Shown here: in pieces, positions 1 to 58,778 of the stretch
Layout: each line of letters opens with the position of its first letter
Numbering within the stretch: the first letter of the stretch is position 1
Source of the DNA: Nannocystis bainbridge
GTDB lineage: Bacteria > Myxococcota_A > Polyangia > Nannocystales > Nannocystaceae
Direction of reading: 5' to 3'
Length of the DNA stretch: 64,000 nt
Assembly (NCBI RefSeq): GCF_028368995.1
Contig: NZ_JAQNDL010000001.1
Span: forward strand, 1,888,001 to 1,952,000
Position numbers and translations under genes: made by a program
The notes under the pieces: generated by a model
Seen by the model: only the letters and a program-made list of their open reading frames with translations
Database searches by the model: none
What the model was told of the DNA's origin: nothing

Positions 1-684
1 GGTGAGCGCCAGCTCGGCCACCAGGTCGCCGAGGCTCGCCTTGACGGTCGTGCTGCCGGCCGCGACGGCGCGCACGATCACGTGGCCGTCGCCGGTGCCG
101 ACCACCTCGACCACCCCGTCGTCGGCCACCTCGAAGGTGAACGCGAGCAGGCCGGCGAGCACGTAGCGGTCGGTGTCGCGGGCGATCGCCACCAGCTCCA
201 GCTCGCTCCCGGCCGCCAGCGTGTACGCGTCGTAGTCGACGCGCTGGTGCTGGATCGCCAGCGTCGCCGGCCTCGTCGCGAACACGTGGATCAGGTCGCC
301 GATGGCGCTGTCCGGCAGCAGCGCCAGGACGGCGGTGTGGCCGGCGGCCACGGCCGTGAAGATCCCCGCCTTCAGGCTCAGGCGCTCGGCGGCGCCGGTG
401 CGGAGTTCGGGCGGCGGCCGCGAGAGATCTTCGTTCCAAGTGTAGTCGAGGGCGAAGCGGGCGCCCACGGCCACGCGGACCGGGAAGTCGCCGACCGACT
501 CGCCGGTCGGACAGGCCGGATCGTCCGCGCCGATGCAGCGGAAATGGAACTCGCCGTTGCCGAGCTCGCCAGGGCCGGGCTGGGGGTCGTAGGGGGCATC
601 GCTGCAGTCGTCGAGGCATCCACCGAGGGCGAGGAGCCCCGCCAGGAGCAGCGGGCGGGAGAAGGCACATGGTCTTGAGGACAT
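1..684 (-). CDS. Hypothetical lipoprotein, 3' end runs off the window
   Basis: Not in the ORF track. Manual translation from ATG at 684 gives MSSRPCAFSRPLLLAGLLALGGCLDDCSDAPYDPQPGPGELGNGEFHFRC..., with a lipobox-like LGGC and an open frame as far as I read it. Confidence 0.7.
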   Translation of the reverse strand, partial: MSSRPCAFSRPLLLAGLLALGGCLDDCSDAPYDPQPGPGELGNGEFHFRCIGADDPACPTGESVGDFPVRVAVGARFALDYTWNEDLSRPPPELRTGAAERLSLKAGIFTAVAAGHTAVLALLPDSAIGDLIHVFATRPATLAIQHQRVDYDAYTLAAGSELELVAIARDTDRYVLAGLLAFTFEVADDGVVEVVGTGDGHVIVRAVAAGSTTVKASLGDLVAELALT

Positions 685-967
685 AAACTTAAGAACAGGT
701 CGTAAGGGCCAGATCGAGACGCAGACCGCGTCCGTCCTCGATCTTGACCGGACGGCGAGGCAGCCGCAAGGGAGACCGGGCGACCCCGACGCAGTCTTCA
801 GGCGCGCATCGAGCGCGGGGCCGCTCGCCTGCCGCGTCACACAGTTGTCACCAAGGTGTCACGTTCTCGCCGGTTTTTGCCGCCGTCCCGTGACTGACAG
901 ACCGCTCGACCCCGCGTAGATTTCGGGCGTAGGCGGCCTCCTGGCGGCCTCGACCGAGGAGAACCTC

Positions 968-2383
968 ATGGAGGCGATGTTCCACGGACTGACGACGACG
1001 ACCGGATTTTTGCTCGTCGTCTCGCTCCTCATCGCGTTCGGGTTCGAATTCGTCAACGGCTTCCACGACACGGCCAACGCGGTGGCGACGGTGATCTACA
1101 CCCGGTCGCTGCGGCCGTGGACGGCGGTCATCCTGTCGGGCATCTGCAACTTCCTCGGCGTGTTCGTCGGCGGGCTCGCGGTCGCGCTCAGCATCATCCA
1201 CCTGCTGCCGATCGAGCTGCTGGTGTCGAGCGGCGTCGGCCTCGGGCTGGCGATGATCCTGTCGCTGCTGCTGGCGGCGACGCTGTGGAACCTCGGCACC
1301 TGGTACCTCGGCCTGCCGTCCTCGAGCTCGCACACGATGATCGGCGCGATCCTCGGGGTCGGCATCGCCAACTCGATGCTGCCGGGCCACGAGTTCGGCG
1401 CCGGCGTCAACTGGGCCAAGGTCTGGGACGTCGGCCTGGCGCTGCTGTTGTCGCCGCTGATCGGCTTCACCCTGGCGGCGCTGCTGCTGCTGCTGTCGAA
1501 GCGGCTGATCCGCGACCCGCAGCTGTACCGCGCGCCGCTCGGCTCGCGCCCGCCGCCGCCGTGGATCCGCGGCGTCCTCATCTTCACCTGCACCGGGGTC
1601 AGCTTCGCCCACGGCTCCAACGACGGCCAGAAAGGCGTCGGCCTGGTGATGCTGATCCTGATGGGCGTGGTCCCGGCCGGGTTCGCCATCAACCTGGCGC
1701 TGAGCGAGGCGCAGATGCGCCAGGCCGAGGCGGCGGTGGTGACGATCCACGACGCGCTCGGGACCGCGGCGACGTCGGCCCCCGACGTGCGCAAGCAGCT
1801 CGACGAGGTCGAGGACGAGCTGCAGTCGCTGAAGGCCACCCTCGGCTCCGCGACCCACCCCGAGCAGGTCCCGGCCGATCAGCGCTTCGCGGTCCGCCGC
1901 GACGTGCTGCTGATCGACTCGACGCTGAAGAAGCTCGACCAGTCGGGCGCGCTGGTGGTGCCGAAGGACGAGTCCAGGCGGATCAAAGAGGCGCGCGCCG
2001 ACCTGCGCGAGCTGACCGACTACGCGCCCAACTGGGTCCTGTTCTGCGTCGCGCTGTCGCTCGGCGTCGGCACCATGGTCGGCTGGAAGCGCATCGTCGT
2101 GACCGTCGGCGAGAAGATCGGCAAAGAGCACCTGACCTACGCCCAGGGCGCCTCGGCCGAGCTGGTGGCGATGAGCACGATCGGGATCTCCGCCGGCCTC
2201 GGTCTGCCGGTCAGCACCACGCACGTGCTGTCCTCGGGGGTCGCAGGCACCATGGTCGCCCAGCGCGCCGGGCTACAGGCCGCCACGGTGGTGAAGATCG
2301 CCTCGGCGTGGGTGCTGACGCTGCCGGCCTCGATGCTGCTGGCCGGCGTGCTGTTCCTGGTGTTCCGCGCGATGCTCTGTTAG
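968..2383 (+). CDS. pitA: Inorganic phosphate transporter, PiT family
   Basis: Signature motifs GFHDTANAVAT, GLPSSSSH, FAHGSNDGQK and GLPVSTTH; many TM segments. Confidence 0.95.
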   Translation: MEAMFHGLTTTTGFLLVVSLLIAFGFEFVNGFHDTANAVATVIYTRSLRPWTAVILSGICNFLGVFVGGLAVALSIIHLLPIELLVSSGVGLGLAMILSLLLAATLWNLGTWYLGLPSSSSHTMIGAILGVGIANSMLPGHEFGAGVNWAKVWDVGLALLLSPLIGFTLAALLLLLSKRLIRDPQLYRAPLGSRPPPPWIRGVLIFTCTGVSFAHGSNDGQKGVGLVMLILMGVVPAGFAINLALSEAQMRQAEAAVVTIHDALGTAATSAPDVRKQLDEVEDELQSLKATLGSATHPEQVPADQRFAVRRDVLLIDSTLKKLDQSGALVVPKDESRRIKEARADLRELTDYAPNWVLFCVALSLGVGTMVGWKRIVVTVGEKIGKEHLTYAQGASAELVAMSTIGISAGLGLPVSTTHVLSSGVAGTMVAQRAGLQAATVVKIASAWVLTLPASMLLAGVLFLVFRAMLC

Positions 2384-2437
2384 CGCGGCGTCGCGCCCGG
2401 GCGAGCGGCTATAGTGCGCGCCGGAGGTCCGCTCTCG

Positions 2438-2722
2438 ATGCCCAGCAGCAGGTCCTGGTTCCTCGTGCCCGTGCTGGCGATCGCGGCGATCGCCTGTGAC
2501 AAGTCGACGAAGTCGCCCGACGCCAACATCGGCGGCACGTACTCCGTCACCCGCGAGACGCCCTTCTTCGACAGCGGCTGCGGCCAGGACCGCCTCGGCG
2601 ACGGCAAGCTGCGCGCCAAGACCCGCTTCACGCTGGTGGCCGCGCGCGCCGACTGCTGGACGATCAAGCTCGGCGACGAGGACGAGACCTACATCGTGCC
2701 GACGCACGTGCGCGCCGAGTGA
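2438..2722 (+). CDS. Small hypothetical lipoprotein
   Basis: GGAGG upstream; signal peptide ending AAIAC; GC3-rich codons. Confidence 0.65.
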   Translation: MPSSRSWFLVPVLAIAAIACDKSTKSPDANIGGTYSVTRETPFFDSGCGQDRLGDGKLRAKTRFTLVAARADCWTIKLGDEDETYIVPTHVRAE

Positions 2723-8081: not shown

Positions 8082-8556
8082 GCCGTCGCCCCCGCGCGCA
8101 CCACGACGAGACCCGCCGCTCGCCGGCCCCCCGCGCTCGCCCTGCCCTCGCCGTCCGTCATCGCCGCGCCGCCACGATAACAAGGAAGCGAGCCGACCGC
8201 GGCGCGCGAGCGCGGCCGAAGCTCGCGTGGATCTGCGCCTCGACATGTCTCAAAAGACATATCACTCGGGCCCGACCCGATTCACATCACGGCGATCGCC
8301 CGCTGCCGCGGCCGCTGTCGAACTTCGCATTGCCCGGCCCTCGAGCGCCGCACTCGAGCTCGATCGTCCCGCGTGCGAGCCCCGCGGCCGCGGTGCGGTC
8401 GCGCGCCCACGATTTTCGTCTCATCGCCCTGCGACATCGCGACGGCCGCCCTGTCATCCCCGCGAGGGGCCAGCGGGCTCGGCCGGTGCGCGCGCTTGCG
8501 AATCGTCGCCGCGCCCGCCGCCGTCGCTCGCGTCCTCGCGCACAGGTGCCACTGTC

Positions 8557-13503: not shown

Positions 13504-13621
13504 CGCCCGGATGGTGACCGCGAAGCCGAGCGCGGCAACCGGCCGGCCACCCGATTGCGAAGTGCCGCATTCGTGGCGCCGCTCGTCCGCCCCCCGCGCC
13601 TGCGATAAGGTCACCGGCAGC

Positions 13622-14671
13622 ATGACCTCGCCACGCTACCCGCTGCCCAACGCCTTCGTCCCGCTCCGCGCCGCGCACCTCGCCGGCAAGCGGGCCACGG
13701 GCCTCAAAGACGTGCTCGTCGCCGGCCCGCTCGTGCTCGCCAGCGGCCGCCTCGTCGCCTGCGACGCCCTCGTGCAGCCCGAGCGCCCGCCGTTTTCCCG
13801 CGTCCTCGCGCCCGGCAGCTACCCCGTGGTCCTCTACGTCGCCAAAGCGGGCGGCGCGATCGGCTTCGCCGAGCTCCGTCTGCGCGACGCCCCCGCCCTG
13901 CGCTTCGAGATGGCCACGATCGCCGGCCAGGACCCCGCCACGCTCGGCCCGCGCGAGACCTTCGGCTATCCGGTCGGCACCGGGCTCGGCTGCTTCGCCG
14001 ACGAGGTCGCCCTGCGCCGGCTGCGGGAGCTCGACGCCGACAACGCCTACGACCGCATCGGCCCCGAGCTGGCCGCCAACGGCGGCGCGTGGGTCAGCCA
14101 CCGCCCCGACCCGCAGGCCGACGACAACGTCGTGCTGTTCCGCTCCGGCGACGGCGACGGCCACTACCCGACCTGGTTCGGCCTCGATGCCGACGACCGG
14201 CCCGTGTGCGTCGTCACCAGCTTCCGCTGCTTCCCCGAGCCCGAGACCGCCGACGACAGGCAGGCCAGGCTCGCCGAGACGTTCGCGCCGCTGGTCGCCG
14301 CCGTCGATCGCGACCTCGGGGCCGGCCTGCGCGCGCGCGGCTTCACCGGCCCCGAGGCGACCTACAAGGGCAAGACCGACGGCGAGCTCAAGCTCGTGTA
14401 CACGCGCGACGGCCTCGCCTTCGAGGTCCTCGGCTCGGCCACCGGCCGCCACCTCTTCACCACCCAGTTCCGCTGGGCCCGCGGCCGCTCGACGCTCGAC
14501 GTCGGCAACGAGCACCGCAAGGCCGGGGTGCCGATCGACTGGAAGGAGGGCGTCGCCGTCGGCGACGCCGCCTTCGTCCACGCAACTCGCATCGGCGCCT
14601 CCTACGCCGCCGGCTGGGACGCGCTCGAGCAAGCGGTCCTGCACTACCTGCCGCTCAAGCGCGCGCGCTGA
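13622..14671 (+). CDS. DUF4241-like domain protein with C-terminal extension
   Basis: SGRLVACD, GYPVGTGLGCFAD and FRSGDGDGHYPTWFGLD motifs. Confidence 0.7.
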   Translation: MTSPRYPLPNAFVPLRAAHLAGKRATGLKDVLVAGPLVLASGRLVACDALVQPERPPFSRVLAPGSYPVVLYVAKAGGAIGFAELRLRDAPALRFEMATIAGQDPATLGPRETFGYPVGTGLGCFADEVALRRLRELDADNAYDRIGPELAANGGAWVSHRPDPQADDNVVLFRSGDGDGHYPTWFGLDADDRPVCVVTSFRCFPEPETADDRQARLAETFAPLVAAVDRDLGAGLRARGFTGPEATYKGKTDGELKLVYTRDGLAFEVLGSATGRHLFTTQFRWARGRSTLDVGNEHRKAGVPIDWKEGVAVGDAAFVHATRIGASYAAGWDALEQAVLHYLPLKRAR

Positions 14672-14679: not shown

Positions 14680-14760
14680 CAAGACATGCCCTCGGAGACA
14701 TGCTCCCAGAGACATGCCCTTGAAGACATTACCCTGAGAGCATGCCCCTCGGGGCATACC
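14680..14760. repeat. 14-bp-period RGRCATGYCY array, 6 units
   Basis: CAT(G/T/A) cores at 14685, 14699, 14713, 14727, 14741 and 14755. Confidence 0.85.
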
Positions 14761-14836
14761 GTCGCGCGCAGCACGGCGGCCGCGTTCTCCGGGCCCGGCA
14801 CCCGCGGCGCCGCCGCGGCTGCAGCGAGCCGGTGCC

Positions 14837-15238
14837 TCATCCGCGGCGGTCGAACCGCTCCCGCGCCGCGGCGATCGTGGGCCAGTGCTCGCCGATCCAG
14901 CGCGCGAGGTGTTCCATCGGCCCCAGAAGGCTGCGGCCGAGCTCGGTGAGCTCGTACTCGACGCGCGGAGGGACCTCGGCGAACACCTCGCGCGCGACGA
15001 AGCCGTCGCGCTCGGCGTCTCGCAGCGTCGTCGTCAGGACCCGCTGCGAGATGCCGGTCAGCATCCGCTGCAGCTCGGAGAAGCGGGCGCGCTGCCCCGG
15101 CGCCTTCGCCAGCATCACGACGAGCAGGACGCTCCACTTGTCCCCGAGCTTGCCCATGAGCTCGCGGACCACCCGGGACTCCTCCGTCTCGCACAGGCGC
15201 ATCGTGGGCGGCGCCGTCTTCGTGCCGGATCTGGCCAA
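14837..15238 (-). CDS. HxlR-family winged-helix regulator
   Basis: LGDKWSVLL, RFSELQR, ISQRVLTTTLR, VPPRVEYELTELG. Confidence 0.9.
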   Translation of the reverse strand: MARSGTKTAPPTMRLCETEESRVVRELMGKLGDKWSVLLVVMLAKAPGQRARFSELQRMLTGISQRVLTTTLRDAERDGFVAREVFAEVPPRVEYELTELGRSLLGPMEHLARWIGEHWPTIAAARERFDRRG

Positions 15239-16460: not shown

Positions 16461-16783
16461 AGCCGTGGTGACTGGTGCCGGCCTTGACCTTGCTCTTCGT
16501 CTTCATGGCCCCTCCTCCCGCGCCAATTCTAGCCGCCGCCTCGCGGCCGACGAGGCCTCACCTTCGCGCATGCTCGCCGACGCGCGCCCTGCCGATCGAC
16601 ATGACCTTTCGGACATGTCGAACCTCCGCGCTCGGGTGCCACGCCGGGTCCCCCCATGAGCCTGCTCACTTCCACCCGCCTCGTTTTCACCAGCAGCACC
16701 GCCCGTGCGCGCGGCCTCGCGGTCACATCGGCGCGGCCTCGCGGGTCTTCCCTCGACGAGACCGCGACCGAGGGACCTGACCG

Positions 16784-17668
16784 ATGCAACAGCGCGACTG
16801 CCTGGCGACCCGCTTCGAGGCGCACCGGACCTATTTGCGGGGCGTCGCCTACCGCATGCTCGGCTCGCTGAGCGAGGCCGACGACGCCGTGCAGGACGCC
16901 TGGCTCCGGCTCGCCCGCACCGACTCCGCCGCCGTCGACGACCTGCGCGCGTGGCTCACCACCGTGGTCGCGCGGATCTGCCTCAACCTGCTGCGCGCGC
17001 GCGGCACCCGGCGCGAGGAGCCGCTGGGCCCGCACGTGCCCGACCCGGTCGTGCGCCGCGAGCCTGGCGTCGACCCCGAGCGCGACGCCCTGCTGGCCGA
17101 GTCGGTCGGCCTCGCGCTGCTCGTCGTCCTCGACGAGCTCGCGCCTGCCGAGCGGCTCGCGTTCGTGCTCCACGACAGCTTCGGCGTATCGTTCGACGCC
17201 ATCGCCGCGCTGTGCGGGCGCACGCCCGAAGCCGCGCGGCAGCTGGCCAGCCGCGCGCGCCGGCGGGTCCGCGCCGCCGCCCCCGTGCCCGACCCCGACC
17301 TCCCCCGTCAGCGCGAGGTCGTGTCCGCCTTCTTCGCCGCCACCCGCGCCGGCGACCTCGGGGCCCTCGTCGCCCTGCTCGACCCCGACGTGATCCTCCG
17401 CGCCGACGGCGGCACCGCGCGCGCCGAGGTCTCGGTCGTCGCCCGCGGCCCGCAGGCCGTCGCCGAGCACTCGCTCGGCTTCGCCGCGATGACCCCGTTC
17501 GTCCGCCCCGCCGTGGTCAACGGCGCCGCCGGGGCCGTCGTCGCCCCCGGCGGCGAGCCGTTCTCGGTCATGAGCTTCGTCGTCAAGGCCGGCAAGATCG
17601 CCGCCATCGACGCCCTCGTCGATCCCGAGCGCCTCGGGAGGCTCGACCTCGGCGACCTCGACGGCTGA
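16784..17668 (+). CDS. ECF41/SigJ-type sigma factor with C-terminal SnoaL-like domain
   Basis: YRMLGSLSEADDAVQDAWLR; LAPAERLAFVLHD; RQLASRARRRV; LLDPDVILRADGG; VNGAAG. Confidence 0.9.
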   Translation: MQQRDCLATRFEAHRTYLRGVAYRMLGSLSEADDAVQDAWLRLARTDSAAVDDLRAWLTTVVARICLNLLRARGTRREEPLGPHVPDPVVRREPGVDPERDALLAESVGLALLVVLDELAPAERLAFVLHDSFGVSFDAIAALCGRTPEAARQLASRARRRVRAAAPVPDPDLPRQREVVSAFFAATRAGDLGALVALLDPDVILRADGGTARAEVSVVARGPQAVAEHSLGFAAMTPFVRPAVVNGAAGAVVAPGGEPFSVMSFVVKAGKIAAIDALVDPERLGRLDLGDLDG

Positions 17669-17757
17669 TATTCCATGTCTCATCGGACATGCTCGAAACG
17701 ACATGTACATCAAGACATATCATCGGCGCTCATGACATGCCCCTTCGGACATGTCAT
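17669..17757. repeat. 14-bp-period RGRCATGYCY arrays (4 + 2 units)
   Basis: Cores at 17674, 17688, 17702, 17716, then 17736 and 17750, between convergent genes. Confidence 0.8.
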
Positions 17758-19000: not shown

Positions 19001-19810
19001 TCAGAGGTCCTTCGACCTGTCCTTAGGGGCATGCCCTTCGGGACATGCCGAGGCCACCCGCCCGGCGTACGTCGAGCGCGGGTGGGCGCGCAAGAACGCC
19101 GCCGCCTCCACGGCCCCACGCGCCGCCTCGCCCGCAGCGCACAGCGCCTGCACCCGCAGCGCCTGCCGCTCCTCGAGCATGCAGCAGTCCGCGAACTCCT
19201 CGGCGTGGCGCTCCAGCACCGCCAGCGCCGCGCCCGGCTGCCCGCCGCGCAGGGCCGCTCGGGCCTGCTGCAGCAGCGCCATCTCGGCCAGCATGCGGTC
19301 CCCCTCGGCGACCGCCTCGTCGCCGCCTTCGGCCGCCTCGGCGGCCCCGGTCCCGCTCTCGGCCCTGCTCGCCGCGCGCCCCCTCGCCCCCGCCTGCGCC
19401 CCGCGCCCCTGGCCCGCCGCCCGTTCGCGCGGCGGCGTGACCACCAGCTTTTGCCCTTCGAGCTCGGGCGTGCCCGCCTCGCGCGGCCCGCCCTCGCCGT
19501 CCGCCCGGATCCTCGCGTCCTGCGAATCGGGCCCCGCGGCGTCGTATTCGGCCTGGTGCCGCATGTCCTGAAGGACCTGTCCCGGCACGAACATGCGGGC
19601 CAGGTCGAGCTGCCAGGCCGCCAGCAGCAGCAGCCCGGCCGCCAGCGCCAGCCACGGCGCGCGGCTCGGCCGGTCCTCGCGGCCCCGCGGTCCGTCCCGC
19701 TCGGCCGCCGCGAGCGTCGCCCACAGCTGCGCCTCGGCGGCGGCGGACGGGCGCGCACAGGCCCGGTAAGCGGCGATCAGCGCGCGAGCGGACGGCGATT
19801 CATCGGTCAT
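19001..19810 (-). CDS. Putative anti-sigma membrane protein with C-terminal TPR-like domain
   Basis: Overlaps the sigma stop; one TM segment; LAEMALLQQARAAL...EERQALRVQALC...FLRAHPRS motif. Confidence 0.7.
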   Translation of the reverse strand: MTDESPSARALIAAYRACARPSAAAEAQLWATLAAAERDGPRGREDRPSRAPWLALAAGLLLLAAWQLDLARMFVPGQVLQDMRHQAEYDAAGPDSQDARIRADGEGGPREAGTPELEGQKLVVTPPRERAAGQGRGAQAGARGRAASRAESGTGAAEAAEGGDEAVAEGDRMLAEMALLQQARAALRGGQPGAALAVLERHAEEFADCCMLEERQALRVQALCAAGEAARGAVEAAAFLRAHPRSTYAGRVASACPEGHAPKDRSKDL

Positions 19811-21589: not shown

Positions 21590-21794
21590 GCGGTCGCCGC
21601 AGGATACGTGAGCCGCCGGGTGATGCAAACGCAGACGCGACCGATCGCCAGCGCGCGCACCACGAAACCCGCCGCACCCCGGGCGACGGCTCGCTCCCGA
21701 CCCCGTCCCTGCCCCTTTCGACATGCCCCATCCGACATGTCCGAAAGACCACGTGCTCTGGCGGTCGCCGGCCCGGTCTCTTACCCTCGGAGCC

Positions 21795-24730: not shown

Positions 24731-24770
24731 AACGTCATGACTTTCAGGACATGCTTTTTAAGACATGTCC
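24731..24770. repeat. 14-bp-period RGRCATGYCY array, 3 units
   Basis: CATG at 24736, 24750 and 24764. Confidence 0.75.
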
Positions 24771-25674: not shown

Positions 25675-26040
25675 GCCGTGGCGCGGTCGAATGCGCGCAC
25701 ACCGGCCGGTGCGCGCGATTCGTCCGCGTCGGGTTCTCGAGCCGTCGGAGCGCGAGGTCGCGCGCTTTTTATCCGCAATGCACGCGCCCCTCGACCTCCT
25801 CACTCGAGCGGCGCTGCCTTGCGAACGAAGCGCGAAGCCGAACCTTCCATACGCTCTCATTCACCGCGACCCCGTTCGCCGGGGACCGAACCACTTCAAT
25901 AGCAAAACTGCCGGCCACATCTCCGTGCCCAGCCGATTGCGACGACCGTGACGATCAGCGTACCCGATCGTCGCCGAAGTCCGAGTCCCCCAATGTCTAC
26001 CGGTCACCTCCATGCCTCGTATCCGGCCAATCCACAGCCT

Positions 26041-26558
26041 CGACTCCGGGCCTGGCTGCAGTTCGCCGAGTGTCGCGCGTACTTGAGAGCATCGTTCAAA
26101 ACATGCTCTTCAGGACATGTCCCGGCGCAGCGGCATCTTTCTCCGATCCCCGCCCTGTCTCGCCGCTCCCGGCGCCCGCGAGCCCCCGCCAAACCCCGCA
26201 CCGCCTGCGGCAGATACCATCGACTCCGGGCCTGACAGCAGCTCGCCGAGTGTCGCGCGTACTTGAGAGCATCGTTCAAAACATGCTCTTCAGGACATGT
26301 CCCGGCGCAGCCGCATCTTTCTCCGATCTCCGCCCTCACCGCTCCTGGCGCCCGCGAGCCCCCGCCAAGCCCCGCACCGCCTGCGGCGGAAATCACCGAC
26401 GCCGGGCCTGACAGCAGCTCGCCGAGTGTCGCGCGTACTTCAAGAGCATCGTTCAAAACATGCTCCTCAGGACATGTCCCGGCGCAGCCGCATCTTTCTC
26501 CGATCTCACCGCTCCCGGCGCCCGCGAGCCCCCGCCAAACCCCGCACCGCCTGCGGCA
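26041..26558. repeat. Three-copy tandem repeat, about 180-bp unit
   Basis: Units start at 26041, 26221 and about 26397; each contains GAGCATCGTTCAAAACATGCTCYTCAGGACATGTCCCGGCGCAG. Confidence 0.92.
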
Positions 26559-33203: not shown

Positions 33204-33221
33204 GCTTCTCGTTTGGAAAGA

Positions 33222-33305
33222 AAGGCCATGTCCTCTCGGGCATGCCCTTGCAGACATGTACTATCGGGCATGACCTCGCGGACATGCCCTTCAAAACATG
33301 TCCGA
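33222..33305. repeat. 14-bp-period RGRCATGYCY array, 6 units with intact CATG cores
   Basis: CATG at 33227, 33241, 33255, 33269, 33283 and 33297. Confidence 0.92.
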
Positions 33306-33316
33306 TTCGCCTGACT

Positions 33317-45249: not shown

Positions 45250-45514
45250 GCGCGGCATCATACGCCGGGGCGTGTTCGCGCGCGAGCCCCCGCCGGGCTC
45301 GACCTTGAAGCCGCGACGAGCCGCGCTGCCGCACCTTCGTGGCGGCACCGCGTGCGGACGGCGCCGCAGGCGAGGCAGCGGGCTCGAGCGTCGCTGCCGT
45401 CGAAGACAGCCTGTCCCGAGGGTCATGTCGGCAAGCGCCGCGCGGCGGTCTGCTGTGCTTCGCGTCGCATGAAATCTCGGGTCCGCCGGGCACATTCATC
45501 GCCACGGAGGAGCG

Positions 45515-47737
45515 ATGCGGCCGGGTCGGGGAGTGACGAGCGTCGCGGCGCTGGGCGTGGGCCTGCTGATCGGTGGTTCGGCCGGCGCGGCGCCGCTGCT
45601 GCGGGCCCAGATCGTCCAGCGCGGCGATTTCGTGCTGGTCGGCAACACGCTGGCCCACGACTGCTCGCCGGCGACCCCGGCCCCGCTGGTCGGCAAGGTG
45701 GGCAATTGCGGGGCGGAGCTCGGCGACGGGGCCGCGGACGTGCTGTGGCGCGCCGACTCGCCGGTGGCCGGGGCCGCGGCCGCGAGCGTGGCGATCGAGG
45801 CCGACGACGCGCGCAGCTCGGCGGTGCTGCTGCTGCCGCCCGGAGCCCGGCCGACGCACGCGTTCCTCTACTGGGCCGCGCAGCTGGCGATCGCCGGCGC
45901 CGACTCGACCGTGGTGCTCGAGCGGCCCGGCTTCCTCGACGTCGAGCTGTCGGCCGACGCCTGCTACGTCAGCGCCGACGGCAGCTACGTGTGCTCGGTC
46001 GACGTCGGCGAGCTGGTGATCGAGCACGGGCCGGGGCTGTTCCGCGTCGGCGGCGTCGAGGTGCGGCCCTTCCAGCACCTGCTCGACGAGGAGATCTTCG
46101 CGGCGTGGTGGCTGGTGGTCGTGTACGAGCGGCCGTTCGACCCACTGCGCAGCATCGGCGTCTACGAGGGCCTCGACGCGGTGCTGCCGCTGCAGCCGTG
46201 CGAGACCGCGTTCGCCGGCTTCGTCGTGCCCAAGGTCGGCGTCGGCGGCACGCTGGCGGTGGCCGGCCTCGCCGGCGATCACGGGGACGTCGGCGACCAG
46301 CTGCTGCTCGCCGACGTGCCGCTGGGCGACGCGCTCAACCCGATCGACGATTTCTTCAACGGCACGCGCGGGGCGTTCGGCTTCGCCCTGTCGGTCGTCG
46401 GCGACCTGCCGCGGCTGTCCGGGCTGCCCGCCAGCGGCTCGGGCCTCGACCTCGACATCGTCGACATCACCGCGCGCCTCGACCCGCTGCAGACTTCGCT
46501 GCCGATGACGGTGACGACCGCGGGCGACGCGATCCTGCTGGCGACCACCGTCGTCTCGATCACCACCGCCGCGCCCAACCTCGAGATCGTCGAGACGGTC
46601 GAGGACCTGAGCGGCGGCGCGTTCGTCCCCGGCGACGTCGCCCAGTACACGATCGAGGTGACCAATGTCGGCAACGACGACGCCGTCGAGGTCGTGCTCA
46701 CCGACACTCTGCCGGCCGCCGTCACCTTCGTGCCGGGCACGCTCGAGGTCGTCGGCGGCCCCGGGTTTCTGTCGGACGTCGCGCTCGACGACGAGGGCGA
46801 GGCGATCGAGGACGAGCTGGTGGTCCGCCTCGGCGTCGGCGCCGACGAGGAGGTCGGCGGCAGCCTGGCGATCGACGCTTCGACGCTGGTCCGGTTTCAG
46901 GTCGTGATCGACGACGAGGCCGAGGGCATCGTCAGCCACCAGGCGACGGTCACGGCGGCGGGCCTGCTGGGCGCGTCGGCCGACGAATTCCTGTCCGAGG
47001 CGCCGCTCGAGTTCCTGGTCGAGGAGTGCGACGAGGTCGCGCCCTGCCCGTTCGACACCCCGCTGTGCGACCTCGGGCCGGTGCCGAACGTGTGTGTCGA
47101 GTGCCTGGACGACCTCGACTGCGGCCCGCTCGAGGTGTGTGACCCGCTGACGAGCGCCTGCGCGTGCGAGGCCGCCGGCCCCGAGCTGTGCGACGGCCTC
47201 GACAACGACTGCAACGAGCTCGTCGACGACGGCTTCGACCTCGGCGCCTCGTGCTCCACCGGCCTCGGCGAGTGCCTCGTCGAGGGCGCGCTGGTGTGCG
47301 ACGGCCTCGGCGGGGTCGCCTGCGACGCGGTCGCCGGCCCGCCCGCCGACGAGCTGTGCGACGGCCTCGACAACGACTGCGACGGAGAGATCGACGGCGC
47401 TTGCACGAAGTGCCTGGCCGACGCCGAGTGCGGCGGGCTGCTGTCGGGCCGCGTGTGCTACCTCGGTGTGTGCGTCGACGGCTGCCGCGCGGTCGGCAAC
47501 TTCTGTCCGCTGGGCCTCGAGTGCTCGTCGGACGACGCCTCGCCCGGCGAGTGCCTGGACCCCGAGGCGGGCGAGGACGAGGCCCCTCCGGTCGACGAAC
47601 TCGAGGACCTCGCCGACGACGAGAAGGTCAGCGACCTGCTCGGCTGCGACTGCGACGGCCGCCCGGGCGACCGCGACGGCCCGCTGCTGCTGGCCCTGGC
47701 CGCGCTGGCCGGCTCGCGCCGCCGGCGCAGGCGGTGA
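45515..47737 (+). CDS. Secreted DUF11-like / Cys-rich repeat protein with MYXO-CTERM sorting signal
   Basis: Signal peptide; PGDVAQYTIEVTNVG...LTDTLP; two ELCDGLDNDC repeats; C-terminal GCDC...LLLALAALAGSRRRRR. Confidence 0.85.
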   Translation: MRPGRGVTSVAALGVGLLIGGSAGAAPLLRAQIVQRGDFVLVGNTLAHDCSPATPAPLVGKVGNCGAELGDGAADVLWRADSPVAGAAAASVAIEADDARSSAVLLLPPGARPTHAFLYWAAQLAIAGADSTVVLERPGFLDVELSADACYVSADGSYVCSVDVGELVIEHGPGLFRVGGVEVRPFQHLLDEEIFAAWWLVVVYERPFDPLRSIGVYEGLDAVLPLQPCETAFAGFVVPKVGVGGTLAVAGLAGDHGDVGDQLLLADVPLGDALNPIDDFFNGTRGAFGFALSVVGDLPRLSGLPASGSGLDLDIVDITARLDPLQTSLPMTVTTAGDAILLATTVVSITTAAPNLEIVETVEDLSGGAFVPGDVAQYTIEVTNVGNDDAVEVVLTDTLPAAVTFVPGTLEVVGGPGFLSDVALDDEGEAIEDELVVRLGVGADEEVGGSLAIDASTLVRFQVVIDDEAEGIVSHQATVTAAGLLGASADEFLSEAPLEFLVEECDEVAPCPFDTPLCDLGPVPNVCVECLDDLDCGPLEVCDPLTSACACEAAGPELCDGLDNDCNELVDDGFDLGASCSTGLGECLVEGALVCDGLGGVACDAVAGPPADELCDGLDNDCDGEIDGACTKCLADAECGGLLSGRVCYLGVCVDGCRAVGNFCPLGLECSSDDASPGECLDPEAGEDEAPPVDELEDLADDEKVSDLLGCDCDGRPGDRDGPLLLALAALAGSRRRRRR

Positions 47738-47739
47738 AA

Positions 47740-47822
47740 TTCACCTGGTCTTCGGGGCATGTTCGAAGCGACATGCCCCGCGGGACCCTGCCTGTGGGAC
47801 ATGCTCCTTCGAGCATGTCCCG
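47740..47822. repeat. 14-bp-period RGRCATGYCY array, 6 units (2 degenerate)
   Basis: Cores at 47744 (CCTG), 47758, 47772, 47786 (CCCT), 47800 and 47814. Confidence 0.8.
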
Positions 47823-47831: not shown

Positions 47832-48950
47832 TCACATGCGGATGACCTCGCCGCGGTGGTAGCTGAGCTTGCGGCCGCTGGGGTCGAACACCATCACGCA
47901 GTCGTCGGCGCCGACGCTGGCGGCGCGGTGGGGCCCGAGCTCGAACAGCAGGAACGAGCGCTGGTTGAGGCCGACGCACGCGTGGTGGCGGAAGCGACGC
48001 GCGAGGTAGGCCAGGTTGTCCGGGTCGTCGGTCTGGATCCGCTCGGTGCAGTGGGGGAACAGCTGGATGTCGCGGACCAGCGCCAGGCCGCGGTCGTACA
48101 GCTGGAAATCGCGCCGCTTGGTCGCAAAGTCGTCGTAGATGATGACCCGCTCGCACAGCACCATCGCCCCGGCCGACATCGCCACCAGCTGGGTCCCGCG
48201 GCGCAGCGCCTCGGCCAGCACGTTGCGCAGGCGGAAGAACCGCAGCGCGTCGAGCAGCAGGTCGAGGTGGCCGCCGAACAGGATGATGCTGTTGGCCGAG
48301 AGGATCCGCCGCTCGAGCCGCTCCTGCGCGGCGCGCCAGGCCGGGTCGTACTGCAGGCCCACGGCGTCGAACGTGCGCTGCTCGATCTGGTCGAGCAGGT
48401 TCACCAGGTGGTCGTCGTTGGCCTCGAGCGTGTCGAGCGCGTGCCGCAGCTCGCGCGACAGGGTGTAGCGCAGCAGCCGGCCGCCGGTGCCGTAGTGGCC
48501 CTGGTCGCCGGCCAGGCGGGCGACGGTGATCGTCGGGTCCTCGCGCTTGGCGACCGCGAGGGTGCGGCGGAACAGCTGGATCAGGTGGGCGTTGTGCTCG
48601 AGGTAAAAGGCGCGGGCCATCTCGGCGATCCGGCGCTCCTCGTGCCACGCGGCCAGCAGCCGCGGGGACGTGCGCGCCAGGCCGCGGACCTCGTGCAGCA
48701 GCGACAGGTTGACCAGACTGGTGTCGTAGCCGTGCTCGAACCGCGACGGCAGGCCGATCGCGTTGAGCGACCGCTTGACGTGGCCCTCGTCGTGCTCGCC
48801 GTCGCCCCAGGCGGCCGTGACGAGCACGACCCGCCGCGAGCGGGCGACCTCCGGATCCTCGTGCCGCGACGACAGCAGCAGCGGCGCCGCCGTCTGCACC
48901 AGGGCGTCGACGGTCTCGGCGTTGCCGTTGAAAAGAACCGCACCTCGCAT
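47832..48950 (-). CDS. Peptidase S51 / class I glutamine amidotransferase-like protein
   Basis: LVTAAW; ILFGGH; AMSAGAMV nucleophile elbow; LFPH. Confidence 0.75.
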   Translation of the reverse strand: MRGAVLFNGNAETVDALVQTAAPLLLSSRHEDPEVARSRRVVLVTAAWGDGEHDEGHVKRSLNAIGLPSRFEHGYDTSLVNLSLLHEVRGLARTSPRLLAAWHEERRIAEMARAFYLEHNAHLIQLFRRTLAVAKREDPTITVARLAGDQGHYGTGGRLLRYTLSRELRHALDTLEANDDHLVNLLDQIEQRTFDAVGLQYDPAWRAAQERLERRILSANSIILFGGHLDLLLDALRFFRLRNVLAEALRRGTQLVAMSAGAMVLCERVIIYDDFATKRRDFQLYDRGLALVRDIQLFPHCTERIQTDDPDNLAYLARRFRHHACVGLNQRSFLLFELGPHRAASVGADDCVMVFDPSGRKLSYHRGEVIRM

Positions 48951-49787: not shown

Positions 49788-49870
49788 GAAGACATGTCCT
49801 TCGGGACATTTTATCCATTCACGGCGGTGATTCACGACATGCCCCGAAGGACATGTCTTCAGAGACATCA
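49788..49870. repeat. 14-bp-period arrays (2 + 3 units) forming a 22-bp inverted repeat
   Basis: Cores at 49793, 49807 and 49838, 49852, 49866; 49788-49809 is the reverse complement of 49839-49860 with one mismatch. Confidence 0.8.
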
Positions 49871-50650
49871 GCGCAGCACGCCCGGCTCGAACTGCACCCG
49901 CCACGGCACCACGGCGATCTCGCCCGAGATGGTCGGCGGGTACAGGGTCGCCGCGGCGATGTCGGCCACGCAGGCGCCGACCTCGGGCGCCTCGCGGATG
50001 TTCTCGAGGATCGCCACCGCGCGGGCCCGGCCGTCGCCGGAGATCGCTATCTCGAGCGCCACGCGCCCTTGCAGCGTCAGCTGGCGGGCCAGCGCGCGGC
50101 GGTAGCAGTCGCCGAGCTCGAGGCGGCGCTCGGCCATCGTCAGGACCACGTTGGCCTGGTCGAGCGGGTCGACCCCGATGAACAGCGGCTCGCGCTTGGT
50201 CGGGCACAGCACCGGCTCGGCGCCGCAGCCCCGGCGCATGAATTCGCCGGCGTCCGGCTCGCCCAGGCCCGCCGCCGCCGAGATGCACGAAGGGGCATGT
50301 CCCCCGAGACAGGCCGAGACGTACAGCGAGGTCGCGGCCGTCGGGTCGCGCTGAAGCCCCTCGCCGCGCTCGAACGCCCGCGCCAGCGCGGCGCAGCCGA
50401 ACGGGTTGGCCAGGTCGCAGGCCCGGCGGGCGTAGGCGGCCGCCAGCGGCAGCTCGCCGAGCTCGCGGTACTGCACCGCCATCTCGACGCACGCCGGCCC
50501 GTCGCCGCGGTCGCAGCGGTCGGCCAGCACGTCGTAGGCGCTGGCGGGCAGCGGCGGCGGCGAAGTCTCGGGCTCCAGCGGCACGTGGCAGCCCGGCAGC
50601 GACAGGACCGTCGCCACCAGCGCCCCGAGCCGAAGGCACCGGCCCTTCAT
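49868..50650 (-). CDS. Lipoprotein with Sel1-like repeats and AgmX/PglI (TonB C-terminal-like) domain
   Basis: LPGC lipobox; ACD...GC...AC..G Sel1 pattern; LGDCYRRAL...GRV...VGACV...VPW. Confidence 0.75.
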   Translation of the reverse strand: MKGRCLRLGALVATVLSLPGCHVPLEPETSPPPLPASAYDVLADRCDRGDGPACVEMAVQYRELGELPLAAAYARRACDLANPFGCAALARAFERGEGLQRDPTAATSLYVSACLGGHAPSCISAAAGLGEPDAGEFMRRGCGAEPVLCPTKREPLFIGVDPLDQANVVLTMAERRLELGDCYRRALARQLTLQGRVALEIAISGDGRARAVAILENIREAPEVGACVADIAAATLYPPTISGEIAVVPWRVQFEPGVLR

Positions 50651-51147
50651 GCGCCCAGCATGCCACGCCTCGCGCGCCTCGGCGATGCCGGCCAGCGACA
50701 TCCCGCCCGCGCGACCCGCGGGGTTCGTCGCCGATGGCCGGCCCGCGCCCCGGCGGACGCGCAGACTCGCCCCCGACCCGGCGAACGGCGTCTCCGAGGC
50801 CCCTACGCCGGCCGGCCACGGCACGCCCCCGCCGCAGCTCGCGCGGTCCGTCGCCCCGGCCCACCCCGGCCCGCCCGCAGACTGCTGTCCGCAGCGCCGC
50901 CACGGCGCCAGATCTTGCTCGCCCCGGCTCTGCTCCCGGCGAGCCGCCGCCGCCCCGGGAGCGTGCTCGCCCCGGGCTCTGCCCCCCACAGTCGGCCACG
51001 AGCGCGCGCCCGTGAGACCCGGCCTCGCGCCAGCAGGCTCCGCTTCCTCTTTTGGAGCGACCCGCAATTTTTCCCCCCGCGGCGGCGACTCCGGGCATGC
51101 GCGGCCCGATCGAGCGGGCCGCGTATTCTCGCCCGGGAGGACTCCTC

Positions 51148-55455: not shown

Positions 55456-55470
55456 GATCGGCCGCCCGTC

Positions 55471-57678
<2,208 letters not shown>

Positions 57679-57691
57679 CGCTCCCGTACAA

Positions 57692-57890
57692 AATGGATGC
57701 TCGTTCGGACATGTCCCTCTCGACATGCCCCGAGAGACATCTCGACACCTCGACCGGCGCGGGCTTGCGAACCCGGCAGCGTCATGCCGCGCTGCCCGAC
57801 CGGCCACAGCCGCCGCGCTCGCCCGCCCGCCGGCGATTCGTCGCCACGGCACGACATGTCCTCGCGGACATGTCCTTCGTGCCATGCCTG
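57692..57890. repeat. 14-bp-period arrays (4 + 3 units) inside the RiPP cluster
   Basis: Cores at 57696, 57710, 57724, 57738 and at 57855, 57869, 57883. Confidence 0.8.
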
Positions 57891-58727
57891 CTCGCCGCCC
57901 TGCTCGCCGCCTGCAGCGAGCCCGCGCCCGCACGGGTCGACGCCGCCCCGGCCGAGCACCGCCCCGCGTCCACCACCGCGCCCGCCCTCGCCCCCGCGCC
58001 GATGGTCGGCGTGCTGGTGCCCGAGGCCGAGGTCGTGCTGGTCTCGTCCGGCTTCTCGCGGCTGGAGCGGCTCGACCTCGAGGTCGGCGACCACGTCGAC
58101 CAGGGGGAGGTCGTCGCCGAGATGGACGTGCGCGGCGATCGCAGCGAGCTCGCGGCCGCGACCGCCGCGTGGAAGGCCTCGAGCGCCGAGCTCGAGCGGC
58201 TCGAGCTCGAGCTCGATCGGGCCCGGGTCACCCGCGCCGACGTCGAGCAGCTCGAGGACTACGTCTCGCGCGCCGAGCTCCGCGAGCAGCGCTACGCCGA
58301 GAAGCTCGCGGCCGCCCGCAAGCGCGGGGCCGGGGCCTCGATGTCGCAGCAGCGCAGCAAGATGGAGGAGGCCACCGCGCGGATCGCCGAGGCCGAGCTG
58401 CGGGCCCCGTTCGCCGGCGTCATCGCCAGCCGCCACGTCGACGCCGGCGCCACCTTGACCGCTGGCGAGCCGGTCGTGCGCCTGATCTCCGACGCCCGCG
58501 TGCTCCGCTTCGCCGTCCCCGAGGCCCGCAGCCAGGCCCTGCGCCTCGGCGCCCCCGTCAGCGTGCGCTTCGCCGGCGGCCCCGAGGTCGCCGCCGAGGT
58601 GATCACGATCGCCCCCGAGATCGAGGTCGGCACCCGGCTGATCTTCGCCGAGGCGCGCCTCGCCGGCGACCAGGCCGCGGCCCTGCGCGTCGGCACCGTC
58701 GCCGAGGTCCGCTTCGCCGGCGACTGA
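57870..58727 (+). CDS. RND/HlyD-type periplasmic adaptor lipoprotein
   Basis: MSFVPCLLAALLAAC lipobox; VGDHVDQGEVV; LRAPFAGVI; FAVPE. Confidence 0.82.
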   Translation: MSFVPCLLAALLAACSEPAPARVDAAPAEHRPASTTAPALAPAPMVGVLVPEAEVVLVSSGFSRLERLDLEVGDHVDQGEVVAEMDVRGDRSELAAATAAWKASSAELERLELELDRARVTRADVEQLEDYVSRAELREQRYAEKLAAARKRGAGASMSQQRSKMEEATARIAEAELRAPFAGVIASRHVDAGATLTAGEPVVRLISDARVLRFAVPEARSQALRLGAPVSVRFAGGPEVAAEVITIAPEIEVGTRLIFAEARLAGDQAAALRVGTVAEVRFAGD

Positions 58728-58778
58728 ACGCATGCCTCTCGGGACATGCCCCAAAGAACATGTCTTCAAATTTATGTT
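58727..58778. repeat. 14-bp-period array, 4 units
   Basis: Cores at 58731, 58745, 58759 and 58773 (TATG). Confidence 0.8.

Follow-up and report, generated by a model that had tools for sequence, protein, structure and literature searches.

This genome, of a soil myxobacterium of the genus Nannocystis, carries thousands of short arrays in which one palindromic word recurs every 14 bases, placed directly 3' of gene ends and most often between convergent genes. The observation of phased CATG palindrome arrays is confirmed, and it reaches far beyond the window, by which we mean the whole 64-kb stretch of DNA analysed. The preliminary description had not recognised the arrays as a described repeat family; our literature search likewise found no account of them in print, and they appear to be undescribed. 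We favor the hypothesis, to which we give a probability of roughly 0.45, that the arrays are cooperative, helically phased double-stranded DNA sites for a putative abundant dimeric protein by which transcription-unit ends would be marked or insulated.

Arrays in the window and across the genome

Among the 58 core positions given in the preliminary description, 42 are exact CATG and the remaining 16 deviate from it by 1-2 letters, as had been forewarned for degenerate cores; the CATG pairs reported for the 180-bp units are also present (26102/26116, 26282/26296 and 26459/26473). The window holds 216 CATG sites, with 27 pairs lying 14 bp apart and none at 13 or 15 bp, whereas random placement of 216 sites gave a mean of 0.70 pairs at 14 bp and a maximum of 4 in 1000 trials. 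RGRCATGYCY occurs 17 times in the window against 0.90 expected, and none of 100 shuffles reached at least 17.

The CATG autocorrelation that had been suggested as a check, run on the 11.05-Mb genome, peaks at 14, 28 and 42 bp as predicted. CATG-CATG distances of 14, 28, 42, 56 and 70 bp number 3736, 2073, 1584, 742 and 350, over a background of ~70-130, or ~250-420 at multiples of 3, with 72 at 13 bp and 262 at 15 bp. For sites found with a position-weight matrix (PWM) the phase is sharper still, with 3706 distances of 14 bp versus 31 at 13 and 28 at 15. A PWM scan of the whole genome counts 4029 arrays with 12,140 units, about one unit per 0.9 kb, and the claim of a genome-wide family therefore holds. 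Multi-unit arrays are intergenic, and 82% of single PWM hits fall in genes, close to the 84% of the genome that is coding. The arrays of the window, to which no strand is assigned, are as follows.

665..701: weak 3-unit array (cores CATG/CATA/CAGG) at a called-gene edge, near-identical in relatives G005 and G007; a doubtful member
8241..8264: 2-unit array lying between divergent genes, with a counterpart in G010, G005 and G007
14682..14761: 6-unit array 3' of ORF 13511-14671 (DUF4241), past its stop, with the HxlR-family gene 14837-15202 (-) on the facing side; arrays at the equivalent place in G001, G005 and G007
16597..16620: 2-unit array (PWM scan and core check)
17671..17722: 4-unit array beginning 3 nt past the stop of gene 16784-17668; the orthologous gap is arrayed in 4/4 relatives
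17733..17756: 2-unit array, phase shifted 6 bp from the array at 17671..17722
19013..19050: 3-unit array, first core CCTG; array there in 4/4 relatives
21705..21742: 2-3-unit array in the gap from which genes 20462-21538 (-) and 21795-22352 (+) diverge; 3-unit arrays at the matching place in 4 relatives
24733..24770: 3-unit array (PWM scan and core check)
26099..26479: three 2-unit arrays (26099-26122, 26279-26302, 26456-26479), one per copy of a 177-180-bp tandem repeat (three copies); relatives carry 4-6-unit arrays nearby
33224..33303: 6-unit array that fills the gap where the PAS/STAS gene 32343-33203 (+) and gene 33317-33790 (-) converge
45407..45430: weak 2-unit array (PWM scan and core check)
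47741..47820: 5-6-unit array that fills the gap where gene 45533-47737 (+) and the peptidase S51 gene 47832-48950 (-) converge; G007 has 6 units there and G005 has 4, and the unit sequences differ
49790..49813: 2-unit array (PWM scan)
49835..49872: 3-unit array, phase shifted 3 bp from the array at 49790..49813; arrays in 3/3 syntenic relatives
57693..57744: 3-4-unit array just 3' of the stop of the ABC-transporter gene 55471-57678; 6 units in G007, 4 in G010
57852..57889: 3-unit array that overlaps, or lies just ahead of, the start called for the HlyD-family gene 57870-58727
58728..58779: 4-unit array beginning at the stop of the HlyD-family gene

The window also contains a few PWM hits that do not represent arrays; that at 50279, for example, lies within the called gene 49868-50701, and its sequence is near-identical across all four relatives.

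Anatomy and phasing of the unit

The element that repeats is 7 bp long, a half-site of GGACA or TGTCC with 2 linker bases, and its orientation alternates strictly. From this alternation come the 14-bp period and a pair of interleaved palindromes: GGACATGTCC, and TGTCC-N4-GGACA, the latter with an AT-rich centre. The 10-bp CATG palindrome that was first proposed as the unit is present, but alternating 7-bp half-sites describe the unit better, and the TGTCC-N4-GGACA pair behaves as coupled across its AT-rich linker at least as strongly as the CATG-centred 10-mer. One consensus serves all of the ~12,140 units, and the same word is found in related species; such uniformity requires a shared reader or a shared generator, and local structure would not account for it. 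The linkers are AT-rich within a genome of 71.5% GC, and they are exactly 4 nt long in >99% of cases.

Rows contain 2-7 units, and their size distribution is non-geometric: it has another mode at 5-6 units (70-84 bp) and is cut off sharply near 7 units (~95 bp). Convergent gaps hold 137, 138, 159, 142, 50 and 8 arrays of 3, 4, 5, 6, 7 and 8 units, respectively; counted in the linker register, there are 234, 342, 265 and 81 arrays of 4, 5, 6 and 7 units. In terminal units, the outer half-site has at least 4/5 matches in 53% of cases versus 78% for the inner one (57% versus 77% in the second such comparison), set against 70/71% in inner units (n = 1072 arrays). Such weakening of the outer half-sites is the expected product of coupling between neighbours. 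Within one array, two linkers are identical in 4.1%, 3.8% and 4.7% of cases at lags 1, 2 and 3 (1.2% at random), lag 1 showing no excess, and units of one array agree at 6.67 of 10 positions versus 6.52 for random units. With linker identity of only ~4% and no RAYT gene, the earlier judgement that the arrays reflect neither slippage nor REP copying is upheld.

We propose that the arrays form a lineage-specific family of cis-elements acting on double-stranded DNA, and that each row would bind one abundant, two-fold symmetric (dimeric) protein. A step of 14 bp would turn each dimer by ~120 degrees, three units equalling four helical turns, and the spacing would have to be exact because neighbouring dimers would touch. 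Cooperative binding by a symmetric protein best fits three observations: near-absent 13- and 15-bp spacings, no covariation, and equal conservation of the two half-sites. Compensatory covariation was found in neither register (pairable fractions observed and expected of 0.620/0.628, 0.612/0.612 and 0.683/0.681, matching at every stem position) nor in the outer flanks of the arrays. In 606 arrays flanked by genes of the same strand, and read along the sense strand, the GGACA half is conserved at G.68, G.71, A.59, C.92 and A.89 and the TGTCC half at T.92, G.95, T.67, C.73 and C.72; the two are equally conserved, whereas a reader of a single strand would require just one. The cooperative dimer binding put forward in the preliminary description thus fits the data best, with the protein itself a putative one, no candidate binding protein having been found.

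Position relative to genes

All gene contexts here rest on a crude, home-made gene caller based on codon usage. The median distance from stop codon to array is 19 nt, and that from array to the next start is 161 nt. At 867 of the 1838 gene ends with a nearby array, the array starts within -5 to +19 nt of the stop; start positions spike at -3, -2, -8 and +6 nt. Of convergent gaps measuring 60-500 bp, 59-69% are occupied by an array; the share is 17-38% for tandem gaps and only 1-6% for divergent ones of 60-250 bp. The longest arrays do lie between convergent genes, as had been noticed in the window: among 366 arrays of at least 6 units, convergent gaps account for 56.8%, tandem gaps for 33.3% and divergent gaps for 2.2%, with another 7.7% falling within a called gene, where intergenic base pairs divide 17/54/29% between convergent, tandem and divergent gaps. 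Arrays are also found between genes that are probably co-transcribed, as at 57693-57889 between the ABC transporter and HlyD genes, and only 6 of 102 tRNA genes have one within 120 bp downstream. Such rarity would be unexpected of a terminator or supercoil site that acted generally at the DNA level; a role linked to mRNA fits it better.

A role in segregation or in ori/ter organisation is not favored. Because array density shows no ori/ter trend, the ties to stop codons and convergent junctions point to transcription-unit ends instead. Bound rows directly after stop codons would mark or insulate such ends, most plausibly as a protein roadblock or topological barrier against read-through and head-on collisions of convergent genes. 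The setting would be a genome nearly without U-tract terminators. Canonical U-tract terminators are scarce here: a run of five T is found in 4.2% of 1671 array-free tandem 3' regions versus five A in 2.4%, and 20 kb contain 5 terminator-like sites versus 3.2 +/- 1.8 in shuffles.

The same positions could be explained if the arrays were transcribed as 3' untranslated ends that fold into rows of imperfect hairpins, neighbouring half-sites or units pairing across the 4-nt linker. These structures would make RNA polymerase pause or terminate with no need of a U-tract, or shield mRNA 3' ends from exonucleases as REP elements do, and palindromy would let one RNA element serve both convergent transcripts. 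The array at 33224..33303 folds strongly on both strands (-39.9 and -44.3 kcal/mol; z -3.5 and -3.4; 0/200 shuffles as good), and the proximity to stop codons, the frequency in convergent gaps, the rarity after tRNA genes, the presence between probably co-transcribed genes and the scarcity of U-tract terminators are all in keeping with it. The sense strand of tandem arrays has a slight excess of wobble-compatible (1696) over incompatible (1493) transitions (ratio 1.14; 0.91 in a convergent control of arbitrary orientation). Nevertheless, we consider an RNA element unlikely. No pairing scheme reveals compensatory covariation and 32-43% of flank "pairs" are unable to pair, neither a U-tract nor an A-tract flanks the arrays, and both half-sites are equally conserved where one strand alone is transcribed. 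Hairpin energetics do not demand the exact 4-nt loop, nor do hairpins alone explain one genome-wide sequence. Stable tetraloops in sense-oriented linkers differ little from their complements (TTCG 62 versus CGAA 48, GAAA 48 versus TTTC 39), and Rfam has no family match within the window.

Taxonomic spread and evolution

Arrays are abundant only in some genomes of one genus, Nannocystis, within which triple hits differ ~20-fold (84-151 versus 0.4-7 per Mb). The word thus recurs in relatives, as the preliminary description proposed to examine, but it is confined to part of a genus and is not general. In four relatives, 23 of 27 orthologous intervals contain an array, versus ~0.30 expected per interval, and arrays persist at orthologous sites across species that are ~80-90% identical in genes, with unit numbers and sequences differing between species. 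Over 480 kb compared, for the 35 of 40 arrays of at least 3 units that lie outside called genes, between-species mismatch affects 6.9% of CATG-core positions, 22.7% of flank positions and 30.9% of linker positions, versus 7.6% at third codon positions and 11.8% in other aligned intergenic DNA, a baseline biased low by counting alignable DNA alone. The contrast first seen in the window, of conserved core and 14-bp spacing with variable 4-bp linkers, is therefore upheld both genome-wide and between species. Arrays accumulate substitutions faster than other aligned intergenic DNA, and the quick change of linkers and flanks could stem from hypermutable hairpins instead of neutrality. Between two species ~92% identical, gap events per substitution are 0.056 in arrays versus 0.160 in other aligned intergenic DNA (Fisher p = 3e-5); indels within arrays (13 events in 1213 bases) are ~3-fold depleted relative to substitutions, but still occur.

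Such turnover would also be expected of a selfish repeat, in which some process (for instance biased repair, a cryptic mobilising enzyme, or template switching at quasi-palindromes) makes and homogenises half-sites without benefit to the cell. Arrays would then pile up where they are harmless, in 3' intergenic DNA, until long palindromes become unstable. Their distribution does resemble the safe havens of REPs and MITEs, being rare in promoter-only gaps and filling convergent gaps up to or over the stop codon. The arrays evolve fast. Their uneven abundance within the genus would follow from an expansion, the cut-off near 7 units from intolerance of long inverted repeats, and the AT-rich linkers from mutation pressure. 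The probability of this origin seems low to us all the same. The genome contains no Y1/RAYT transposase at E <= 0.001 in a search that was positive in 6/14 reference genomes used as controls, there is no signature of target duplication or slippage (linkers being seldom identical and unit likeness barely above random), and we know of no mechanism that generates alternating 7-bp half-sites. Arrays are furthermore kept at orthologous sites with core and phase retained, convergent-gap occupancy is very high, and the length distribution has its second mode.

Relation to known systems

REP clusters (the BIMEs and REPINs of enterobacteria and pseudomonads) share much with the arrays, being high-copy extragenic palindromes at 3' ends and between convergent genes, in alternating orientation and tandem clusters of variable number, with abundance varying between relatives. 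For REP-type elements, roles in termination, mRNA stability and supercoiling have been proposed (PMC3733652), and these are candidates for the arrays too. However, REP units are imperfect palindromes of 20-40 bp with a GTAG or CGTC head, whereas array units are 14 bp (two 7-bp half-sites), their spacing is strict to the base, no RAYT/Y1 gene accompanies them, their stems do not covary, and linkers are not copied between units or loci. Bidirectional intrinsic terminators likewise sit just past stop codons in convergent gaps with hairpin potential that is symmetric between the strands, but the arrays differ from these in having no flanking A- or U-tracts, no covariation, one genome-wide sequence and a periodic multi-unit build.

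The consensus 10-mer equals the optimal p53 half-site (RRRCWWGYYY), with unrelated spacing and context. The word stands in 47 papers; among the matches listed, the binding-site treatments all concern p53 and none a bacterial site. No P53 DNA-binding domain was detected in the genome, in a search that was equally silent on control genomes and hence weakly informative. As far as this is testable, the likeness is a coincidence, as the preliminary description held.

It is very improbable that the arrays mark the DNA for another transaction, as CATG methylation clusters sensed after replication, uptake or self-recognition signals, or type II topoisomerase sites between convergent genes. The site is two-fold symmetric with a 4-bp core, and the genome has one D12-class adenine methyltransferase gene; this family, however, is found in 25/31 relatives, array-free genomes included, and does not track the arrays. 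A restriction-type reading is unsupported because CATG is not avoided outside arrays (observed/expected 1.17), nor is it specially enriched there (1.09-1.36 for other 4-bp palindromes). The DUS and USS of Neisseria and Haemophilus are ~10-bp lineage-specific words at ~1 per kb, DUS often forming inverted pairs at gene ends, and the arrays match them in word length, lineage specificity and density. Uptake signals are nevertheless non-palindromic, frequent in genes and not in phased tandem, a phase for which they have no need, whereas multi-unit arrays are intergenic. Under the twin-domain model, positive supercoils build up between convergent genes, at the junctions that arrays occupy, and the BIME-2 arrays of REPs in E. 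coli bind gyrase. Gyrase wrapping would, however, be expected to give a periodicity of ~10.5 bp rather than 14 bp, and array density has no ori/ter trend.

For rows of bound dimers, the MetJ metboxes and the heptad arrays of the omega repressor offer a likeness. Both are operators of ribbon-helix-helix proteins, with short abutting units, palindromic or alternating, at a fixed period; one dimer binds per unit, neighbours make contact, and a row has 2 to ~10 units. The omega repressor units are 7 bp long, as are the half-sites here. These operators repress initiation at a handful of promoters, whereas the ~4000 arrays described here stand at gene ends and are nearly absent from short divergent gaps.

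A phased repeat built from alternating half-sites

The genome of Nannocystis bainbridge (11.05 Mb, 71.5% GC, five contigs) carries a very strong and real repeat system, in which palindromic units with a CATG core follow one another at a 14-bp period in arrays of at least two units. Among 58 core positions listed for the window in the preliminary description, 42 are exact CATG and the other 16 are off by one or two letters. The 14-bp period claimed there is equally clear, with 27 CATG pairs at 14 bp and none at 13 or 15 bp (0.70 expected under random placement), and it extends to the whole genome, where CATG-CATG distances peak at 14 (3736), 28 (2073), 42 (1584), 56 (742), and 70 bp (350). A position-weight matrix (PWM) derived from phased CATG sites has the consensus GGACATGTCC, followed by four variable AT-rich bases, and its sites recur genome-wide 3706 times at 14 bp versus 31 times at 13 bp and 28 times at 15 bp. 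Chaining these sites yields 4029 arrays and 12,140 units in total. Array sizes run from two units (2255 arrays, part of which are chance PWM matches) through three (702), four (400), five (306), six (239), seven (90), and eight (21) to a maximum of 13. Within convergent gaps the distribution is flat from three to six units and then drops (137, 138, 159, 142, 50, and 8 arrays of three to eight units), and sizes counted in the linker register have a second mode at five to six units.

The unit can be read in two registers, either as a CATG-centred 10-mer or as the linker-centred pair TGTCC-N4-GGACA, whose two halves we call half-sites. Three lines of evidence favour the linker-centred pair as the putative dimer site. 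First, exact TGTCC-N4-GGACA occurs 1987 times genome-wide and exact GGACATGTCC 956 times; control arrangements occur 16 (N3), 5 (N5), and 13 (reversed) times, with about 13 expected by chance. Second, a further half-site lies immediately beyond called arrays at 12–15% of ends on the array-proximal side versus 2% in the background and 0.5% on the distal side. Third, among 1072 arrays of at least four units, the outer half of the first and last unit is weaker than the inner half (53 vs. 78% and 57 vs. 77%), and inner units are symmetric (70/71%). The ends of register-neutral chains are near equal (897 vs. 728 even-length chains of at least four half-sites). Thus, the repeating entity is best described as a 7-bp half-site whose orientation alternates strictly. 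A 28-bp super-period, hinted at by TRF, was not supported, because lag-2 similarity is not above lag-1.

The linkers are AT-rich, the commonest being CTTC, TTCG, GAAG, GATC, and CGAA. At array ends genome-wide, the first core is often CCTG and the last CATC, CAGG, or CATA. Isolated TGTCC-N4-GGACA sites favour C before (62%) and G after (55%), and because of this preference the half-site may be 6 bp, CTGTCC/GGACAG, where it has no neighbour.

Arrays follow stop codons and fill convergent junctions

With gene contexts taken from a home-made codon-usage caller (8276 genes, 84% coding; crude, above all for start codons), arrays of at least six units (n = 366) lie in convergent gaps in 57% of cases, in tandem gaps in 33%, and in divergent gaps in 2%, compared with 17, 54, and 29% of intergenic base pairs, which agrees with the earlier claim that the longest arrays lie between convergent genes. 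An array is carried by 59–69% of convergent gaps of 60–500 bp, mostly one of at least four units, by 17–38% of tandem gaps, and by 1–6% of divergent gaps of 60–250 bp (0–6% when all those below 250 bp are counted). In gaps between genes on one strand, a median of 19 nt separates the upstream stop from the start of the array, and a median of 161 nt separates the array's end from the next start. At 867 of the 1838 gene ends with an array nearby, the array starts between −5 and +19 nt of the stop, and spikes in this distribution are cases in which the stop codon forms part of a unit. The 79 "divergent" arrays of at least three units lie mostly in long gaps, which probably hide uncalled genes; in short divergent gaps, an operator-type search for an autoregulated gene of a putative array-binding protein found 44 exact TGTCC-N4-GGACA sites adjoining 42 small genes. 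Array cores contain ATG and so create spurious ORF starts.

The genes next to arrays in the window have unrelated functions (DUF4241, HxlR, PAS/STAS, DUF11, peptidase S51, ABC exporter, and HlyD). Within 120 bp downstream of tRNA genes, an array is present in only 6 of 102 cases, and the 35-kb ribosomal-protein cluster contains no array of at least three units. Arrays of this size number 13–68 per 250 kb and are overdispersed, with no ori/ter or macrodomain bias seen. In the same genome GC skew is strong, and genes show no co-orientation with replication (plus-strand fraction about 0.5 in nearly every 250-kb bin), which accounts for its approximately 1500 convergent junctions.

Arrays keep their place while their sequence turns over

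In syntenic regions of four relatives, whose genes are ~75–92% identical, arrays occupy the same intergenic places and differ in unit number, flanks, and linkers. An array is present in 23 of 27 orthologous intervals versus an expected fraction of ~0.30, the intervals being long (mean 853 bp). Two relatives of ~92% identity were compared over 242 kb of alignment, using the 35 of 40 arrays of at least three units that lie outside called genes. The CATG core shows 6.9% mismatch, the flanks 22.7%, and the linkers 30.9%, compared with 7.6% at third codon positions and 11.8% in other aligned intergenic DNA, a baseline that is an underestimate, as DNA that fails to align is not counted. Within alignments, substitutions are in phase and indels fall in flanks rather than inside arrays, with 0.056 gap events per substitution within arrays versus 0.160 outside (P = 3e-5).

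Each unit of an array is close to an independent draw from the consensus. Linker identity within an array is 4% versus 1.2% for random linkers, with no lag-1 or lag-2 excess, so that neither recent duplication nor slippage nor target-site duplication is the source.

Triple hits, that is, three CATG cores at 14-bp spacing, number 1670 in N. bainbridge, 1005–1162 in five large congeneric genomes, 2–62 in five other genomes assigned to the genus, and 0–4 in 20 genomes from outside it; with the reversed control, the count is 0–2 per genome. Per Mb, this amounts to 84–151 in the large, array-rich genomes (the window's own, G000, and G001, G003, G005, G007, and G010) and to 0.4–7 in the array-poor ones (G002, G004, G006, G008, and G009), one of which, G009, is a 9.1-Mb assembly in 40 contigs with 62 triple hits. 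A scan for the exact 10-mer doublet in one genome from each of 185,579 species returned 78 stretches, which by our count comprise 64 from Nannocystis, 9 from Nannocystaceae MAGs, 2 from Myxococcales MAGs, and 3 unrelated single matches. Four soil-metagenome contig sets gave short pieces only, uninformative on how array length varies. Together, the triple-hit counts and the species-wide scan show that the array family is an expansion within Nannocystis. Arrays could serve as lineage markers, and the contrast between rich and poor genomes of one genus is natural material for finding the gene of a putative array-binding protein, or reader.

A predicted protein row at transcription-unit ends

We favor, with a probability of about 0.45, the hypothesis that arrays are phased rows of predicted protein-binding sites on DNA that mark or insulate the ends of transcription units. 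An alternative, which we regard as unlikely, is that they act as arrays of RNA hairpins. As RNA, either strand of the arrays does fold strongly (−39.9 and −44.3 kcal/mol, z near −3.5), but 32–43% of flank pairs are unable to pair, and compensatory covariation is absent within units and between adjacent units across the linker; in the outer flanks there is a weak signal in two-unit arrays (0.326 vs. 0.269 at k = 1) and otherwise none. Neither a U- nor an A-tract adjoins the arrays, T being 0.09–0.28 at each position from +1 to +40 downstream of 606 oriented arrays. A wobble test gives a ratio of 1.14 versus 0.91 in the control. On the sense strand of tandem genes, conservation is the same for the two half-sites, and the loop is exactly 4 nt in >99% of cases, an exactness that a hairpin does not need. 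Taken together, the missing covariation and tracts, the equal half-sites, and the fixed 4-nt spacing point to a symmetric, sequence-specific putative reader on duplex DNA, with neighbours in helical register.

The arrays also lack the U-tract that, in intrinsic terminators, directly follows a stable GC-rich hairpin (with an A-tract before it in the bidirectional type). Such terminators appear rare in this genome: a five-T run is found in 4.2% and a five-A run in 2.4% of 1671 tandem 3′ regions lacking arrays, and terminator-like sites are not above shuffles. This scarcity leaves room for another way to end transcription. We tentatively suggest, as a rather doubtful but more specific proposal, that Nannocystis has evolved a boundary system dedicated to transcription units and encoded in DNA sequence. 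In it, a putative dimeric protein present in abundance would polymerise in helical register on alternating 7-bp half-sites right after stop codons, and its rows would either terminate or insulate transcription in both directions, in a factor-dependent way, or recruit topoisomerase. Such rows would be at work at some 40% of all 3′ ends of mRNAs and roughly two thirds of convergent junctions, and would replace U-tract terminators, which are largely missing from this genome of 71.5% GC.

There is also a low probability that the arrays are a selfish or drive-generated repeat. In distribution, REP/BIME clusters are the closest known elements, since the arrays are likewise high-copy, extragenic, and located at 3′ ends and in convergent gaps. 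A REPIN-RAYT system includes a cognate RAYT gene (an IS200/IS605-type Y1 transposase) in the genome; as a mobiliser it was rejected, as PF01797 has no match at E ≤ 0.001 in the N. bainbridge genome (90.5% complete) and was detected in 6 of 14 reference genomes as a control. Together with the missing lag-1 excess in linkers, this upholds the preliminary description in its argument against slippage or copying. If the arrays nevertheless proved selfish, no phased repeat family known would be smaller, and they would point to a generating mechanism not yet described. Another kind of DNA mark is very improbable. The D12 adenine methyltransferase was rejected as a genus-specific reader or writer, as it occurs in 25 of 31 relatives, some of them array-free.

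Comparison with known systems

The repeat system is apparently undescribed. REP elements are imperfect palindromes of ~20–40 nt with a GTAG or CGTC head that form a stem-loop (cf. PMC3733652). Elements of the REP/BIME/REPIN type thus differ from the arrays, whose unit is a 10-bp perfect-type palindrome with a 4-bp linker (or 5+4+5) and no tetranucleotide head. Operator arrays of ribbon-helix-helix repressors (MetJ- or omega-like) consist of abutting short units at a fixed period over promoters of regulated genes, and have a cognate dimeric DNA-binding protein. They are closest in architecture, as Nannocystis arrays share abutting fixed-period units, alternating every 7 bp, but these avoid promoters. 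CRISPR arrays have identical repeats of 23–50 bp and unique spacers of similar length, whereas the Nannocystis arrays combine a 14-bp period with 4-bp spacers and degenerate units. MITEs have terminal inverted repeats, a target-site duplication, and copies alike throughout, whereas here linkers and flanks are unrelated between loci. No Rfam family matched the window, and no p53-type domain (PF00870) was found in the genome at E ≤ 0.1, the 14 control genomes being equally silent. In the main texts of the literature searched, we found neither the word nor such arrays described for a bacterium; the passages on repeats in the N. exedens genome announcement (PMC5658511) mention only large repetitive regions. 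Two REP-defining features, the headed palindrome and the RAYT gene, fail here. The initial impression that this is not a described repeat family agrees with the literature searches.

To our knowledge, the ending of transcription and the avoidance of convergent collisions are poorly understood in GC-rich bacteria with few U-tract terminators. Here, an 11-Mb genome has ~12,000 copies of one short word, in strict helical phase, at most of its convergent junctions; across species these keep their location, whereas their sequence is replaced. If the protein row is true, it would constitute a new boundary element and a new bacterial cis/trans system for ending transcription. It would also give the engineering of myxobacteria, a major source of natural products, a compact insulator part that works in either orientation.

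Individual loci in the window

Four loci were noted:

19559–19582: two-unit array inside a weakly scored called gene (19001–19810, minus strand)
26040–26610: tandem repeat of a 177–180-bp unit in three copies, each with one two-unit array
33204–33316: gene junction of the cleanest array, with flanking genes 113 bp apart
57693–57889: two arrays between an ABC exporter gene (C39 peptidase domain) and an HlyD-family gene

The array at 19559–19582 is kept in four of four relatives with typical linker and flank turnover, and for this reason the gene call is probably in error, or the site is a junction of two genes. At 26040–26610, the later copies are 96 and 62% identical to the first, and relatives carry single arrays of four to six units nearby instead. 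The genes flanking 33204–33316 are ~700–1660 bp apart in four relatives and on separate contigs in a fifth, which indicates DNA loss in N. bainbridge or gain in the relatives. Both arrays at 57693–57889 are retained in G007 and G010, two of the array-rich relatives. An ABC exporter and HlyD-family gene pair would normally be co-transcribed, and this locus is a good test case for intra-operon attenuation.

Separately, CTAG is strongly under-represented in N. bainbridge (1509 vs. 7649 expected, ratio 0.20), with other 4-bp palindromes at 0.8–1.35. CTAG scarcity in other bacteria is attributed to very-short-patch repair, and the pattern here resembles it.
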